Origin: a virus
IMG/VR virus record: IMGVR_UViG_3300021467_000205
Coordinates: 1-24,515 of that record
DNA: 24,515 nt
Direction: 5' to 3' (one strand)
The notes beneath the pieces are model-generated. The model was not told the DNA's origin. It did no database searches and saw nothing but the letters and a program-made list of their open reading frames with translations. Numbering within the stretch: position 1 is the stretch's first letter; every line of letters starts with the position of its first letter. The position numbers were made by a program, and so were the translations under genes. Of the stretch, positions 11,928 to 22,561 are shown piece by piece.

Positions 11928-13349
11928 CTAATACCCTTTCAACATCCTGTAACTGTCTCCTTTTCTTCTACTTCTCACCGTTACCGGCCAGATCATCTGC
12001 CCTTTTTCTGTCCCGGCATGCACCGCCAGCGCCAATGCCCAGAAGTGGTCGGCATGGCCGGTTTCTTCGGTTCTGTCTGCATCAAAACGAAAGTGCCCGG
12101 TGGGGGTAGAATATTTTTTCACGCTGTGTAGGCTGCGGTGGATGGTCTGATCTTTGGGAATCCACACCCCTATATCCTCTATCGTATCTTTTAGCTGCGT
12201 GGCTAAAGTTTCCTTGTTCGCATTGGTGAAATCTATTCCTTCTACTCTGCTGCCAAACATATCCCCTGCTTCCTCTGCCAGTTGTGCGCCAATGCCAGTT
12301 TTATCAATCGCAGCCCGGCGCCAGTTAGGCAGAGACAAAAGGGTAAACAAAACCTTTTTTTGCACATAAAACGGCTTTTTTTTAAAAGTGATCACTGCCC
12401 GCGTATAGTTGTATAGCGCCTTTTTCTCCAGTAACCAGATGATAGATAAATCCCGTTCACGCCCAATGTCCATGCCGGCAAAAAGATCGCCATCAAGGGC
12501 TGCCAGTTCTGCTACAAGCTCAGCGGCTTCTCTCTCCCACCAGGGTGGGTCTTTTTTGTGATGTTTAAAGTATTTATGTGCCCTTTCTGCTTTTTTGATG
12601 AGCTCATCCACCCACCACGGCTCTGAATCAAGTTTTTCATCTTCTACAAGATTGATCATTTCATGGGTCAAAAAGGCTGTTGTTTCATCAGCGGCAATGA
12701 CTAAAAACTCCTCTTCCCAAGCTTCGTCATCACCCAGAAGCTCTCTCAAATCTTCCGGGGTGATTTCATTCCCGTCTTCGTCATAGATTTTAAGTCCTTC
12801 TGCTACTGCGTCATAAATAGTTGTACGGTGGTGGGAGTATTTTTTATTTTTGGTCAGCTCAAAAAACTTTGTTTTCTTACCTTTATGCGTGCTGCTAATG
12901 CGGATTTTATAGCCCCGGGTAATGGCCGGGAATATGGCCTTCCAGATACCCCTATCATCTTTATGAAAGGCAAACTCATCCAGATACACATTGCCTGAAA
13001 AACCCCGAATTGTGTCAGGATTAGAGGGTACAAAATGCAGCAGTTTATCGTCATGAAACACGATGGTTTCCATGTTTTCTTTTTCTGGGGTAATGATTTC
13101 CTCTGTCAGGATGCGCAAAACCTTAATGTGCTTTCTTGCCTCACGGGCTGCTTTTTGAGACTGCCGATTGGAAGCAGAGCCATAGACGCTCTCAATAGGT
13201 TTGGGATGAAGGCTTGTTTCCAGAACGGCCTTCAAGGCCATTGAAAAGGTTTTACCGATTTGTCTGGATGACTCCCAGACGATACCAATTGTTTTGTCTT
13301 CAACAAACCTTCTCTGATATGGCAAAAGTATTTTTTCATGATTCATCAC
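11928..13349 (-). CDS. terL: Terminase large subunit (Mu gp28-like)
   Basis: LLPYQ, SRQIGKT (Walker A), LDEFAF (Walker B), GMDIGRERD and GHADHFWALAL nuclease motifs. Confidence 0.94.
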   Translation of the reverse strand: MMNHEKILLPYQRRFVEDKTIGIVWESSRQIGKTFSMALKAVLETSLHPKPIESVYGSASNRQSQKAAREARKHIKVLRILTEEIITPEKENMETIVFHDDKLLHFVPSNPDTIRGFSGNVYLDEFAFHKDDRGIWKAIFPAITRGYKIRISSTHKGKKTKFFELTKNKKYSHHRTTIYDAVAEGLKIYDEDGNEITPEDLRELLGDDEAWEEEFLVIAADETTAFLTHEMINLVEDEKLDSEPWWVDELIKKAERAHKYFKHHKKDPPWWEREAAELVAELAALDGDLFAGMDIGRERDLSIIWLLEKKALYNYTRAVITFKKKPFYVQKKVLFTLLSLPNWRRAAIDKTGIGAQLAEEAGDMFGSRVEGIDFTNANKETLATQLKDTIEDIGVWIPKDQTIHRSLHSVKKYSTPTGHFRFDADRTEETGHADHFWALALAVHAGTEKGQMIWPVTVRSRRKGDSYRMLKGY

Positions 13350-14381: not shown

Positions 14382-14807
14382 TTAATATCTCCTGGCGAGT
14401 AAAAAATTTAAATCCCTTACCTCAAAATTAGGGCATGTTTTGTGCGGATTGAAATCTCTATGGCCAAAAATGGGAATATTCCCAAATTGCTGGCGCAAAT
14501 CCAAAATAAGCCCAACAAGTTTTTTCAGTTGTTTGACGGAAAAATGATGTCTGCCAATCATGCAAATGCCAATACTATCATGATTCTGTCCTCGGCAATG
14601 AGCGCCTACCTCTTCAACTGGTCTTCCCTTTTCAATAATACCGTCGTCTTGGGGGACATATTCTCCTTTTTTACGACACCCATTTAAGATAACATAATGA
14701 TATCCAATACACCGCCAACCACGCTCTTTGTGCCAGCGGTCTATTTCTTCAGCATCGCCAAAATCACTATCACTACAATGGACAATAATCTTATTGATTT
14801 GTCGCAT
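14382..14807 (-). CDS. Endolysin, N-acetylmuramoyl-L-alanine amidase (T7 lysozyme/Amidase_2 type)
   Basis: IIVHCSD, WH..RGW..IGYHYVI, GAHC.G.N.DSIGIC, GHRD, KTCP zinc-amidase motifs. Confidence 0.93.
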   Translation of the reverse strand: MRQINKIIVHCSDSDFGDAEEIDRWHKERGWRCIGYHYVILNGCRKKGEYVPQDDGIIEKGRPVEEVGAHCRGQNHDSIGICMIGRHHFSVKQLKKLVGLILDLRQQFGNIPIFGHRDFNPHKTCPNFEVRDLNFLLARRY

Positions 14808-14880: not shown

Positions 14881-15020
14881 ATAAAATGAAGGAGTTGATA
14901 TAAGGCGGAAAGTCCTCTATGCCGAAAGAAATGCCTGGGTCCGATTGGAGGCCACCATTCCTTACTAGGCCGGCTTATCTCTGCCTCCAGGTTCCCCGGC
15001 AGGTAGAATAGAACCCAAGC
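14881..15020 (-). ncRNA. Candidate structured small RNA / leader (3' end uncertain)
   Basis: Begins at predicted +1 of a consensus promoter; 10-bp closing helix 15020-15011/14942-14933 with two G-U pairs; internal 7-bp helix UGGAGGC/GCCUCCA; no credible ORF. Confidence 0.5.
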
Positions 15021-15026
15021 AAAAAA

Positions 15027-15056
15027 AGTATATCACCATAGCCTGTTGTTTGTCAA
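15027..15056 (-). promoter_or_regulatory. Sigma70-type promoter TTGACA-N18-TATACT with TGn extension
   Basis: TTGACA at 15056-15051, TGA-TATACT ending at 15027, in the gap just downstream of the HTH gene. Confidence 0.75.
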
Positions 15057-15067
15057 GTAGATAATTT

Positions 15068-15298
15068 CTAATCCTCCCAATTAAACGGATGCTTCTTTTC
15101 CAGATATTCAAGCAGCGCCGACCTGGGTATTCGCCACGCACCACGAATTTTGGTGGCGTCGATTTCTCCAATATACACTAGCTCATATATAGTGCGTTCG
15201 GCAATCCTTAAAAAGCTTGCCACCTCTTTAACCGTAAGAAAATGAGGCATCTGATTTATTTCGTTCCTGATCGTTTTGATACAGTATTGGTTGTTCAT
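15068..15298 (-). CDS. Excisionase-like (HTH_17/MerR-type) DNA-binding protein; candidate late activator
   Basis: LTVKEVA.FLRI..RTIY.LV..GEI.A.KI.G.WRIP; last gene of the middle block, where Mu has activator C. Confidence 0.8.
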   Translation of the reverse strand: MNNQYCIKTIRNEINQMPHFLTVKEVASFLRIAERTIYELVYIGEIDATKIRGAWRIPRSALLEYLEKKHPFNWED

Positions 15299-15723
15299 TT
15301 CCCTCTGCTTCTTATCTTTTTAAGTACCTCTATTACTTGATTTGCTTGTTTCCCTGTCAGCCATCGCAAATCCTGCACTCCTGTCATTTTGAACACAAAA
15401 CGTCTGAGCGCCCGCTCTGGATTTCTTGCAAATGTTACTTCCGCCCATAACACTTCTATCTTTCTGAGTTGCCCCGGAGTGGCCATCCCAGGGCGTTTGC
15501 CCAGGTCATCATATTTTTTACGCTTTCTTTTCTCTTTAAAGCCTCGTTTTTTGAAGGCATCTAGCACCTTTTCAAGCTCAGCCAGGCTCATCTGGGAGCA
15601 ACTTTCCTTAGCGGCTTGCGCCTGCAAAAAGTCACGATACACCACATCATCAAAGCCAAGCTGCACTTTAGCAATGTGAATTTTTGCAATCAGTATTTTG
15701 CGTAGGTCTTTTGCCTCAGGCAT
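15295..15723 (-). CDS. gemA: Regulatory protein GemA (Mu gp16 / DUF1018)
   Basis: LIAKIHIAK.QLG.DD..YR.FL, SCSQMS..EL.KVL..FKKRGF, Q.RKI..LW, L.WLT..QA..VIE.LK. Confidence 0.88.
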   Translation of the reverse strand: MPEAKDLRKILIAKIHIAKVQLGFDDVVYRDFLQAQAAKESCSQMSLAELEKVLDAFKKRGFKEKRKRKKYDDLGKRPGMATPGQLRKIEVLWAEVTFARNPERALRRFVFKMTGVQDLRWLTGKQANQVIEVLKKIRSRGK

Positions 15724-15886
15724 AACGCTCCCTTTTAATGAAATATCGTATTAAATCTTTGGCTCGCACCCAATATTCTTTCCCTGTGTTCTTATTTTTT
15801 ATTTTCACATCAAAATCACGCACTTCTATAATCACATAGATATTTTTGTTAACCTTATGTATCCACTGTTGTCCCACTTTAAACAT
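15716..15886 (-). CDS. Hypothetical 56-aa protein (not in ORF track)
   Basis: ATG 15886 after GAGG RBS; MFKVGQQWIHKVNKNIYVIIEVRDFDVKIKNKNTGKEYWVRAKDLIRYFIKRERYA; fills the gap and overlaps the gemA start. Confidence 0.75.
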   Translation of the reverse strand: MFKVGQQWIHKVNKNIYVIIEVRDFDVKIKNKNTGKEYWVRAKDLIRYFIKRERYA

Positions 15887-18269: not shown

Positions 18270-18494
18270 CTAGCGTGCATACCTTTCTACTTCTTGTTCT
18301 TGACAAAGCACCTTCCACTCTGTGCAATTTTCACACGGCCCAGGCATAGGAAATATATTAGGGTTTGTCCATCGCCCAATTTCTTTCAGCCTGGGCCTTT
18401 TTCTGTTTGCCTCACATTGCTTAGGACTAATCCGTCCTAAGCCATGTGGACATACAAAAGTGTTATCCTTTAGCCACTTCTCTTTGTCTGGCAT
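18270..18494 (-). CDS. Cys-rich (CPxxxG...C...CxxC...C) domain protein, 74 aa
   Basis: Five Cys; strong protein and DNA similarity to residues 35-85 of the tail chaperone. Confidence 0.75.
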   Translation of the reverse strand: MPDKEKWLKDNTFVCPHGLGRISPKQCEANRKRPRLKEIGRWTNPNIFPMPGPCENCTEWKVLCQEQEVERYAR

Positions 18495-19321: not shown

Positions 19322-19647
19322 CCCCTCCTGATTACAGTTTCCGGGTCCTCAACCCAGTATTCATTGGTGTTAGGATCAAAAAGAAATCGCAAATCCTTTT
19401 GCACTGGTGGTTTAGGTCCGGTGTTTTTCACCAACCGATACACCCAGTGTGTGCCTTTCCCATTTAGATTGGGTTTGCGTCTTTTCCGTAAATACCCTGC
19501 ATCCGCTAAAATTTTTAGATACCGTTTGATATTGACATAGGTAGCGTCAGTAAGCATTTCTATATCCGCAGAAGTAAATTCCTCTTTATGAGCCCGGATT
19601 ACCTTCCAGATTTTGGCCCTATCTGTTTGCATCCGCACCTTATTCAT
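19318..19647 (-). CDS. Winged-HTH protein typical of the gene after MuB in Mu-like prophages
   Basis: IWKVIR...EFT..DI, YLKIL..AGYL, YRLVKNTGPKPP, FDPNT. Confidence 0.72.
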   Translation of the reverse strand: MNKVRMQTDRAKIWKVIRAHKEEFTSADIEMLTDATYVNIKRYLKILADAGYLRKRRKPNLNGKGTHWVYRLVKNTGPKPPVQKDLRFLFDPNTNEYWVEDPETVIRRG

Positions 19648-20330
19648 TTTGTCCCCTCCAAATCCCTTGCTGTAACAACCTTCCCCTTGTTTGTCTTTGC
19701 CATTCGCTCACATAGATACAAACACACCACCACTCGCCTAAATTTCCCACCTGATTTATCCCACACCCATTTCAGGGCTGAATCCTCAAGCTTCGCCTCG
19801 CAAATGGTCTCAGCCGTTAGTCGCACATCATCAAGACTAAGCGGTTGAAATTTCACTATCTGAGAAAAACGGTCATAAAGATGTTTATAACGGGCCAGTT
19901 TTTTATCAGCCTGACTCATACCGATATACACAAAAGGAGCACCGGTAATATCGTGCAGGTCCCGCAGAGTTTCAATTACACGAGCATCGTAGGTAAGATA
20001 GTCCACTTCATCTATGAACACGATGCGTGGCTTCTCTAAAAGGGCATCTTGTGCTTGCCTAAAAAGATCACTTGTCCTCCACGCCGGTGCTTCACCAAGC
20101 TCTGCCACAAGCTCTTCAAGCAACCAGCGGCCGGACATGAGCTTTTTTGTGCGGATAAATATCGCTCCATCATCCTGGGCCACATACCAGAGGGCTGTGG
20201 CGGTTTTGCCGTAACCGGGCTCGCCATATACAAGTGCCATACCCGGAATGCCCTCCTGACGTGTCTTTAGTGACACCATTGCATCCAAAAAATGCCTAAC
20301 ATTTGACACTTTGACAAACTGCTTTTTCAC
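19644..20330 (-). CDS. MuB: Transposition ATPase (MuB-like, AAA)
   Basis: GEPGYGKT Walker A, IFIDEVD Walker B, LRDLHD; directly after the transposase. Confidence 0.92.
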   Translation of the reverse strand: MKKQFVKVSNVRHFLDAMVSLKTRQEGIPGMALVYGEPGYGKTATALWYVAQDDGAIFIRTKKLMSGRWLLEELVAELGEAPAWRTSDLFRQAQDALLEKPRIVFIDEVDYLTYDARVIETLRDLHDITGAPFVYIGMSQADKKLARYKHLYDRFSQIVKFQPLSLDDVRLTAETICEAKLEDSALKWVWDKSGGKFRRVVVCLYLCERMAKTNKGKVVTARDLEGTK

Positions 20331-20332
20331 GA

Positions 20333-22561
20333 TTAACCTCCTGTTTGAACCTTTCTTCTATGCCCTGCGTGGGCTTCGGCCCACCAGGGCGTTCCTTTTT
20401 TTTCGTCCTCTTCTTTGTAAATCAGCCGATACATATCTGTGGTGATAAACCATTTAATAAACTCCACTTCTTTTTCATCTCTGAGAGGCCGACCTTTTTC
20501 TAGATACTGCTGCCGATACCACTCATACGCCCTCCAGGTGTCCGCTCCAAAGAACGGCACATCATCTGCTTGGCTGTCTGTATCACCCCTTTTCTCTTTT
20601 TGTTTGTTAGACAATTGCACTACCTTTTGTTCAATTGCCTGTATATCTTTAATAAATTTTGTTTCATCTGGGGCAGATGTTTCGGCTTCTATACGCTCAA
20701 TGGTCTCTGGAATGTTCGGCACCTGAGAAACAACCTCATTCCAGGGCAGTTCTGGTAAAGACCTGCCGGATTGAATGGCCGCTTTGGCAAGCTGGACAGT
20801 CTGTTTTTTGAGTCGCTTTTTCTGGGAAATACCTTGCTTAACAGCCTGCATATCAAGAGGATTGCCGATAAGAAATACAGCCGGATGGACGCTTTCCACC
20901 AGTTCTGCTGGCCCAAGATAATTGCCGCGCAGGTCAAAAACATAGATGCGGCTCAGGTTAGTGAATATATAGCGAATGATTACCTTTTCCCGCAGGCCAT
21001 ATAGATTTTCATTCCAGTATTGGTTGCCAAGGAAGGAGATGCCGTTTCGGAATACTTGTTTCACTTCATACGGCATCATGAGAAAGAAAAGCTGCTCTAC
21101 ATCCACTCCCGGCCCTTTGCCGGCATTAAACACTTCCCCAGGTGTGCGGCCTCTAAGTCCACGGTGGGGCTGGCTGGCATAAAATTCACGCCAAGAGTAA
21201 AAGAGTTGGATCACCTGCGGAATAGTGGGTATCCATTTACCCTTGATGCGTTTGGCCAGTTTTTCATTGCGTTTAAGGTAGGCAGGTTTGTCATCTATGT
21301 TCTGCCCCACATAACTTGGCAGCATCCGCTCAAACCACTCATTAAATGTACCAAAGAAACGCTCAACCGGCTTTGACTGGGCGTTGTATGGCCAGCAAAA
21401 GTGAGTGTGAATGCCAAGCCGGGCATACATGCCGTATATACCCGCCTCTTCAAGGTTTACTTCGCTCGTAAATATCTTGGCTTTGAAGGCCTTGCCGTTA
21501 TCCAGAATTACAGCCTTAGGCATCTTGCCCAGGGTAATGATGGCATCGGCCAGGGCACAGGCAATGGCCTGGGTGTCTTCCTGGATCATTATAGAAATGC
21601 CCACTGGAAATCTACTTGCCCAATCGTAAAAAAGGATTAGTGCCGGCCGATAGGGCTTACCGGTAAAGGGATTGATTACTTGAAAGTTGCACCGCTTGCC
21701 ATCTGCTACCAATACCTCGCCGACTCCAAGCAAATCGGCATTGCGCTTAAGGTATGGAAGGACTTTGTCGTTTAAACCCTTTTCGCCCTCACGAAGCAGC
21801 GTCCAGAGATCATAATTTTGCGCCCGCCATTCCTTCACCCACCGGCGCATCGTGTCATAAGAGGATGGAGATGGAATGCCACGCTGGGCAAGGATGTGTT
21901 TGGCAATGCGGATAGCGGTGTTTATCTTAATCTGGTTTTGATAGAGAAGGATATCTAAAAGGATATTTTTCTCATCTTCTGTTATCTTGCGCTGCCCTTT
22001 GTTATGCCCCCACCGCGGAGCAAGGGCTGTATAGTCATCTTCTGCTTCAGAAAGGGTCTTATCCCATACATATAGAGTTTTTATGGAAATCTGGCCTAAA
22101 ATTTCATAGATTTTCGGGAAAAGTAGGGCTGAATTATAGCTTTTTATAAAATTTTCAGCCGCCTTTAAGACCTTTTCACCCCGTTTTTTAGCCGCTTCTT
22201 TCTCAGCTCTAAAGGCTCTAACCAGATCCGCTCTGGCTAAAGCAATACGTTCTGCCCACTGCGGAAGCTGTGTTGGTTCATGATAGATATTTTGTGAGCT
22301 GACCGGCGCAAGTTGACGTTGACTTTGAATATGGGTAATAACAGTGTTGGGATTGTTTTCTACTGGAGAAAGAGCCCTGATGAGCTTAAAACGAATATCC
22401 TGGGGTAGGGAAGAAAGGATGTATTGTTTCTGTTTGCCACCACGGGCACGCCCTTTTATCTGTTGATATGGCCACTTTTCTTTTCTTGCTCTTTTATCAA
22501 TTGTTTGTCTTGAAACCCCTAATATCTCCGCAATTTCTTTAGCTGTGAAGTATTCTTTCAT
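20333..22561 (-). CDS. MuA: DDE transposase (MuA-like), 742 aa
   Basis: N-terminal Mu-type HTH (TAKEIA.ILGVS..T+.KRARKE.W); DDE at VADGK, LDNGKAF, KPVERFF; HRGL.GRTP and GI.F.G..YW C-terminal domain. Confidence 0.95.
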   Translation of the reverse strand: MKEYFTAKEIAEILGVSRQTIDKRARKEKWPYQQIKGRARGGKQKQYILSSLPQDIRFKLIRALSPVENNPNTVITHIQSQRQLAPVSSQNIYHEPTQLPQWAERIALARADLVRAFRAEKEAAKKRGEKVLKAAENFIKSYNSALLFPKIYEILGQISIKTLYVWDKTLSEAEDDYTALAPRWGHNKGQRKITEDEKNILLDILLYQNQIKINTAIRIAKHILAQRGIPSPSSYDTMRRWVKEWRAQNYDLWTLLREGEKGLNDKVLPYLKRNADLLGVGEVLVADGKRCNFQVINPFTGKPYRPALILFYDWASRFPVGISIMIQEDTQAIACALADAIITLGKMPKAVILDNGKAFKAKIFTSEVNLEEAGIYGMYARLGIHTHFCWPYNAQSKPVERFFGTFNEWFERMLPSYVGQNIDDKPAYLKRNEKLAKRIKGKWIPTIPQVIQLFYSWREFYASQPHRGLRGRTPGEVFNAGKGPGVDVEQLFFLMMPYEVKQVFRNGISFLGNQYWNENLYGLREKVIIRYIFTNLSRIYVFDLRGNYLGPAELVESVHPAVFLIGNPLDMQAVKQGISQKKRLKKQTVQLAKAAIQSGRSLPELPWNEVVSQVPNIPETIERIEAETSAPDETKFIKDIQAIEQKVVQLSNKQKEKRGDTDSQADDVPFFGADTWRAYEWYRQQYLEKGRPLRDEKEVEFIKWFITTDMYRLIYKEEDEKKGTPWWAEAHAGHRRKVQTGG

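Follow-up and report, generated by a model that had tools for sequence, protein, structure and literature searches.

A 131-bp block located between the early/middle and the late genes of a Mu-like provirus (positions 15056-14926, minus strand, of the window, i.e., the whole stretch of 24,515 nucleotides that was analysed) has about an even chance of being a horizontally acquired, self-contained transcription unit of the moron type that carries a stand-alone small RNA (sRNA) gene. Sequence comparison shows that both promoter and insert are real, and that the block has been shared horizontally. The sRNA reading is indirectly backed by the recurrence of the block, from promoter to U-tract, in a second, unrelated mobile element where both promoter hexamers and the TG extension are kept. 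Provided that the RNA is expressed, this would be an sRNA moron that is, to our knowledge, unusual for a Mu-like phage, as well as a clear instance of phage and chromosomal island exchanging a non-coding transcription unit as one block, within a lineage of deep-sea vent bacteria that has been little studied. With the sRNA being a predicted one, the finding is modest and restricted to one lineage.

The record is a 24.5-kb IMG/VR provirus with a Mu-like gene content in which every gene lies on the minus strand. The contigs compared below originate from hydrothermal-vent and sediment metagenomes. The genes that define its map around the element are:
20333-22561, minus strand: MuA-type transposase
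19644-20330, minus strand: AAA+ MuB-like protein
15295-15723, minus strand: GemA
15068-15298, minus strand: 76-aa HTH_17 protein, the last early/middle gene, occupying the place of Mor in Mu
14382-14807, minus strand: Amidase_2 endolysin, the first late gene
11928-13349, minus strand: large terminase
The element under study is found in the 260-nt gap between the HTH and endolysin genes. The HTH protein falls into three clusters only among 5.8 billion proteins.

The block begins with a promoter of near-consensus sequence:
15051-15056, minus strand: -35 hexamer TTGACA, whose first base is the left edge of the block common to the host island; identical in the host contig L018
15027-15035, minus strand: extended -10, TGa followed by TATACT (TG at 15035-15034, TATACT at 15032-15027); identical in L018
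Reading of the sequence bears out the arrangement described in the initial annotation, TTGACA-N18-TATACT with a TG extension at 15056-15027, the spacer being 18 nt long. The promoter is intergenic and oriented as the phage genes. When the whole window was scanned on both strands for sites with at least 11 of 12 matches to TTGACA-N16-18-TATAAT plus the TG extension, 0.03 were expected and one was found, at 15056-15027, so that the promoter match goes well beyond chance. The predicted +1, G15020, lies 7 nt past the -10 hexamer and is the first base of a 10-bp helix (see below). Another promoter-like site (11/12 matches; TTCACA-17-TATAAT without TG) is present at 15804-15832 of the plus strand, inside a small ORF (15716-15886) and on the strand opposed to all phage genes.

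The nearest relative of the phage (contigs L010-L013 and genome G001) has an HTH protein 70% identical and is the only non-identical relative found that retains the HTH-to-endolysin gap. Its HTH stop codon is separated from the endolysin start by 77 nt that align to the late-promoter element only, which makes about 185 nt (15067 to ~14883) of the gap studied here extra DNA in this phage. By this comparison with a related collinear phage the element is an insert. It is missing from the sole relative with a homologous HTH gene that was found. No further phage relatives were identified in the class of G001 or in IMG/VR. Copies of the phage in seven other metagenome contigs have an essentially identical gap with two SNPs, both within the late-promoter part. 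The sequences that follow the block, and a second copy of the late-promoter element, are:
14883-14925, minus strand: rest of the insert, for which no homolog was found; phage-native sequence resumes at ~14882
14859-14820, minus strand: late-promoter element of 40 bp, outside the cassette, in which the dyad TTTGC-N7-GCAAA is accompanied by a T-run and a weak -10
9437-9398, minus strand: second copy of the late-promoter element, preceding the head operon and identical to the first at 35 of 40 positions

The element at 14859-14820 would be the expected activator-dependent late promoter, as suggested by its sequence and duplication. The consensus promoter had been assigned to the head of the late region, which is right as to position, but the late operon has this promoter element of its own; late regulation would thus not be headed by the consensus promoter. 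The phage map is corrected in this sense: the duplicated dyad element, and not the consensus promoter, would drive the late operon. In Mu, the regulatory cascade proceeds from Mor to Pm and C, and then to Plys, PI, PP and Pmom. The phage resembles Mu in the order GemA, small DNA-binding protein, lysis genes, and in having late promoters with an upstream dyad and no -35 hexamer; unlike Mu, it has no C gene, no Mor/C-family protein, and a 131-bp cassette without Mu counterpart. The similarity between the two late-promoter copies runs ~25 nt further upstream (ATACTyT...) and a related layout occupies the whole 77-nt gap of L010. No Shine-Dalgarno sequence precedes the endolysin ATG (14807), which is found only ~11-13 nt past the -10-like TAGCAT of the late promoter; the first late mRNA may therefore lack a leader or have a very short one. 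The copy upstream of the head operon is followed by a leader of ~25 nt with AAGGAGG.

The block that recurs outside the phage, and the host loci in which it is found, are:
14926-15056, minus strand: 131-bp block extending from the -35 hexamer to the U-tract, 85% identical to L018 and 88% to the genome G040; also found in L016-L017 and L046-L055
L018:3458-3790 (minus strand) and G040:C1:902238-902510: the two host alleles, both present in the runs examined
In the phage the block ends with ...GGACCCAGGCAUUUCUU, and homology spans the first base of TTGACA to the U-tract. Contigs from four vent/sediment runs match positions 14926-15024 and diverge on either side. In the same samples (runs X2, X6, X11 and X12) the sequencing depth of the host-type block is 57-254x while that of the phage flanks is about 3-10x and that of the phage as a whole about 5x; either the phage is present in a small part of the population or it resides in a rarer relative. 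The flank of the high-depth contigs led to three JGI contigs, and these to ten further contigs and to the complete 2.54-Mb genome G040. This genome belongs to the same small class or order (seven species genomes) as G001, the host of the related prophage; the prophage studied here is absent from it.

The host locus is an integrative island that encodes UvrD, SLT, DUF5131, a tRNA, RNase III, a tyrosine integrase and a tnpB fragment. It is a patchwork of mobile-element fragments, including a piece of an IS3 transposase and the tnpB 3′ fragment, which is joined to the block via an 8-nt microhomology. Island and phage share no similar proteins, and a tblastn search with the G040 island proteins against the window gave no match. 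Immediately past the U-tract, within L018:3457-3654 (minus strand), lies an orphan tnpB 3′-end fragment of 136 nt. At 99% identity it matches the end of a tnpB of 423 aa that looks intact and is found elsewhere in G040 (L028:366-1637). In IS200/IS605 elements the tnpB 3′ region overlaps the omega-RNA scaffold. The G040-type TnpB is labelled "candidate division KSB1 bacterium" by one source.

Other searches for the block returned little. Exact-pattern scans of IMG/VR revealed no further copies, a scan of GTDB genomes gave one chance match inside a Verrucomicrobiota gene, and BLAST against phage records and plasmids gave nothing. A first scan of JGI metagenomes was empty, its pattern spanning a G/A polymorphism. 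No block homologs beyond G040 were found in 401 genomes of the phylum, and a covariance model built from the phage and L018 copies found only G040 in its class. A 23-bit match of this model in G078 is taken as chance, since by eye it resembles the antisense of a protein-coding gene. The block family is known from two genetic contexts only, and in both the edges of the block are the -35 hexamer and the U-tract.

Ten contigs from different samples carry the full host allele with 100% identity, which leaves just five distinct sequences to align. Relative to L018, the phage copy keeps both hexamers and the TG identical and differs at 4 of the 18 spacer bases. A second host allele (L016, L017, G040) has undergone a 62-bp deletion between TAGCCT repeats and lacks the promoter as well as nt 1-12 of the RNA, and with them the 5′ strand of the closing helix. 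As the promoter is lost in this common allele, the unit is dispensable in the island context.

The RNA predicted from the promoter position has two parts:
14933-15020, minus strand: predicted RNA body of 88 nt with 59% GC, closed by a 10-bp helix (15020-15011 with 14942-14933)
14926-14932, minus strand: U-rich tail AUUUCUU directly after the closing helix, a candidate for a non-canonical terminator; the shared block has its right edge here
The closing helix is present as described, GCUUGGGUUC (15020-15011) being complementary to GGACCCAGGC (14942-14933) with two G-U pairs, and its pair probability in the ensemble is about 1.0. The internal helices proposed in the initial annotation exist as complementary sequences. 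The 7-bp helix UGGAGGC/GCCUCCA (14989-14983 with 14952-14946) has a pair probability of 0.12; the 5-bp GCCGG/CCGGC helix has a pair probability of 0 and is disrupted by the C49G change of L018; the pairing of AAGGAAUG with the tail segment CAUUUCUU likewise has a pair probability of 0. A detailed fold with pseudoknots and with the 7-bp and 5-bp helices receives no support from the ensemble or from the variants. Among the latter, A41G adds one pair to an alternative hairpin (18-23/36-41) and two A-to-G changes leave the tail pairing as G-U. The stretch had also been called GC-rich in an AT-rich gap; this stands for the RNA body, at 59% GC in a window of 43%, and not for the surroundings, the entire gap having 44-45% GC.

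Statistically, the structure claim is not beyond chance. The minimum free energy (MFE) of the 213-nt leader compared to shuffled sequences gives z = +0.70 (+0.60 for the opposite strand), and that of the 88-95-nt RNA z = -1.0 to -1.2, with 21-28 of 200 shuffles folding equally well. An uninterrupted helix of at least 10 bp occurs in 62% of composition-matched 213-nt shuffles, and one that starts at nt 1-3 in 3.7%. In the five little-varying sequences, no pair of the helices changed on both sides (0 pairs; 500 of 500 shuffles reach the observed values), and the lack of compensatory changes is explained by the small number of distinct sequences known (3-5). No canonical hairpin-plus-U terminator was detected between 15020 and 14807; the candidate terminator consists of the 10-bp helix around a 68-nt interior, followed by AUUUCUU. 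The statement that the element is not a known riboswitch or ribozyme agrees with an Rfam search of the phage element, which gave no match at the gathering score or at E<=10. The host copies matched nothing in Rfam except an unrelated tRNA, and ARAGORN detected no tRNA or tmRNA. A retron ncRNA, which the terminal inverted repeat brought to mind, was discarded because no reverse-transcriptase gene was seen adjoining in either context. A 13-codon ORF of the minus strand (MVASNRTQAFLSA) was also rejected for want of Shine-Dalgarno spacing and of a conserved end.

For the favoured sRNA unit the following mode of action can be proposed. The near-consensus sigma-70 promoter with its extended -10 would be active independently of the phage cascade, and hence in the lysogen too, and transcription would start at about G15020. 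The first 10 nt, complementary to nt 79-88, are predicted to pair with them and to close the GC-rich body of ~88 nt. This helix and the AUUUCUU that follows could form an intrinsic terminator, unusual for the size of its loop. Being strong and constitutive, a promoter located 210 nt before the lysis genes needs a stop, and the terminal helix with AUUUCUU, which belongs to the conserved block, is the sole candidate for it. Termination there would release an RNA of ~95 nt, shielding the lysis genes from the strong promoter, and this RNA may act in trans on a target, probably of the host. A stand-alone RNA of ~95 nt is favoured because the block has the -35 hexamer and the U-tract as edges in two unrelated elements and because the promoter is kept while its spacer drifts; the GC content of the RNA body and the predicted closing helix at the very start of the RNA also speak for it. 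Against the sRNA reading stand a fold no stabler than that of shuffles, the lack of compensatory changes and of a canonical terminator, the common host allele devoid of the promoter and of the 5′ strand of the closing helix, and the restriction to two genetic contexts. Nor was a target found among the phage translation-start regions: RNA duplex energies against the 39 regions reached -41.1 at best with a null median of -40.6, and the longest exact complementarity is 10 nt, which is at chance level by our own estimate.

A more far-reaching version of the sRNA reading, which we regard as speculative and improbable, sees the 131-bp unit as a mobile sRNA cassette of one deep-sea vent bacterial lineage. 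It would pass from one unrelated mobile element to another, here a transposable phage and an integrative island linked to a tRNA, and would act in conflicts between these elements or in host control. In the island, where it is located upstream of the orphan tnpB 3′ fragment with its omega-RNA-type scaffold, it might also drive synthesis of a guide-like RNA without a TnpB of its own.

The block could instead be debris, a foreign scrap acquired through illegitimate recombination with the host island, with a promoter that is a passenger, possibly active, and with RNA and DNA devoid of function. We consider this unlikely, though not markedly so. It accords with the patchwork nature of the host locus (the IS3 piece, the tnpB 3′ fragment and the 8-nt microhomology), with the deletion of the promoter in one host allele, with the absence of a thermodynamic or covariation signal, and with the lack of more homologs in the 401 phylum genomes, IMG/VR, phage records and plasmids. 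It is countered by the edges of the block, which fall on the -35 hexamer and the U-tract in either context, and by hexamers and TG conserved next to a diverged spacer. Furthermore, an unterminated consensus promoter 210 nt before the lysis genes ought to be deleterious, but all copies of the phage have kept the insert without change.

The stretch had been described as having no credible ORF. This holds on the minus strand, but a conserved frame of 27-30 codons is present on the plus strand:
14919-15011, plus strand: antisense micro-ORF of 30 codons in the phage and 28 in the host
Its product, MPGSDWR[P/L]PF[L/P][T/IS]RP[A/V]Y[L/P]CLQVPRQV[E/G], would be a peptide of 27-30 aa, and conservation of the block would then reflect coding, an explanation that we judge improbable. 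The existing variation suits this frame at least as well as it suits the RNA fold: the ATG and the stop codon are kept in five of five sequences, a 3-nt indel does not shift the frame, which also persists in the allele with the 62-bp deletion, and the three substitutions between L018 and L017 are all synonymous. The weight of the latter is limited, since three substitutions in the same phase have a chance of ~0.01-0.1 over six frames (our estimate), and non-synonymous changes amount to five codons between phage and host plus two within the host. Homology stops 6 nt upstream of the ATG, so that there is no shared ribosome-binding site or promoter; the bases before the ATG are purine-rich but not of the Shine-Dalgarno type, while the head gene, the one other start read closely, has AAGGAGG. 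The peptide is not hydrophobic, and a six-frame search of the 401 phylum genomes retrieved only G040's own copy of the block. A type I toxin-antitoxin system was rejected as well, the plus-strand peptide being rich in Pro and Arg and having neither a hydrophobic stretch of membrane-helix length nor a conserved ribosome-binding site.

It is quite improbable that the block is a relic of the 5′ end of an IS200/IS605-family tnpB, comprising its promoter, 5′ UTR and first 11 codons (MVASNRTQAFL), and that the host locus is an internally deleted tnpB which keeps the omega-RNA scaffold. The idea is suggested by L018, in which a 66-aa frame begins with the AUG at RNA nt 63 and continues in frame into a tnpB C-terminus (...LLKNTPGYGDGVKATPAW...), and by the NRTQAF motif, which we take to resemble TnpB N-termini. 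Against it, the longer homologs of the 66-aa ORF match its C-terminal part only and begin with MKRTN or MRKTN. The Shine-Dalgarno-like GAGGA abuts the AUG with zero spacing, a UGA stop is found two codons upstream, and the host variants show non-synonymous differences in this frame. No full-length element with this 5′ end exists in G040; the identification as a tnpB 5′ end was dropped as no full-length tnpB sharing both the upstream region of the block and the first codons was found.

The put RNA of HK022 is a cis-acting processive antiterminator, and the initial annotation had offered such an RNA as one interpretation of the element. With the element read as a cis-acting leader, the promoter would feed the late operon and the structured 5′ RNA would be a put-like modifier of RNA polymerase or a regulated attenuator. 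The element shares with put a predicted structured RNA directly past a strong phage promoter, the first late gene follows it immediately and in the same orientation, and the stretch from 15020 to 14807 has no canonical terminator. A cis-acting leader is nonetheless very unlikely in view of the late operon's own duplicated, activator-type promoter (14859-14820), of the absence of the element from the nearest prophage, whose late promoter remains, of its presence outside phages in an island where it precedes the tnpB fragment with no operon downstream, of the terminator-like helix and U-tract at its end, of the lack of an antiterminator or riboswitch match in Rfam, and of the death of lysogens that constitutive read-through to the lysis genes would presumably cause.

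Phage morons are defined by a promoter and a terminator of their own, as in the type of HK97 gene 15 (PMC3594210). The sRNA unit favoured here resembles them in several respects: it is extra DNA relative to a related phage, has its own sigma-70-type promoter (identified in silico), sits between operons, differs in GC content from its surroundings (0.59 versus 0.43), and is horizontally shared with another mobile element. In contrast to known morons, its cargo is apparently a non-coding RNA rather than a protein gene and its candidate terminator is non-canonical; expression from the repressed prophage is, in this case, a prediction. In lambdoid prophages, sRNA genes (the anti-sRNAs AgvB and AsxR) occupy the moron site close to PR′, the late promoter (Tree et al. 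2014, PMC4104026). The likeness lies in the position of a small RNA gene at the boundary between late regulator and late genes, a site tolerant to insertion. The cassette differs from AgvB/AsxR, which occur as convergent pairs, in belonging to a Mu-like phage of a different bacterial phylum, in the length of its RNA (~95 nt versus 51-60 nt), in the absence of sequence similarity, and in being predicted from the sequence.

Two sets of repeats are found elsewhere in the window. A perfect tandem duplication of 21 nt (ATTTGCTGCTTCTTTATAGTG x2) lies at 691-732 within the long ORF 1-2316 at the left end, probably the tape-measure gene. Direct repeats of 54 and 91 nt with 83-84% identity are present at 2665-2819 and 18297-18466, 15.6 kb apart.
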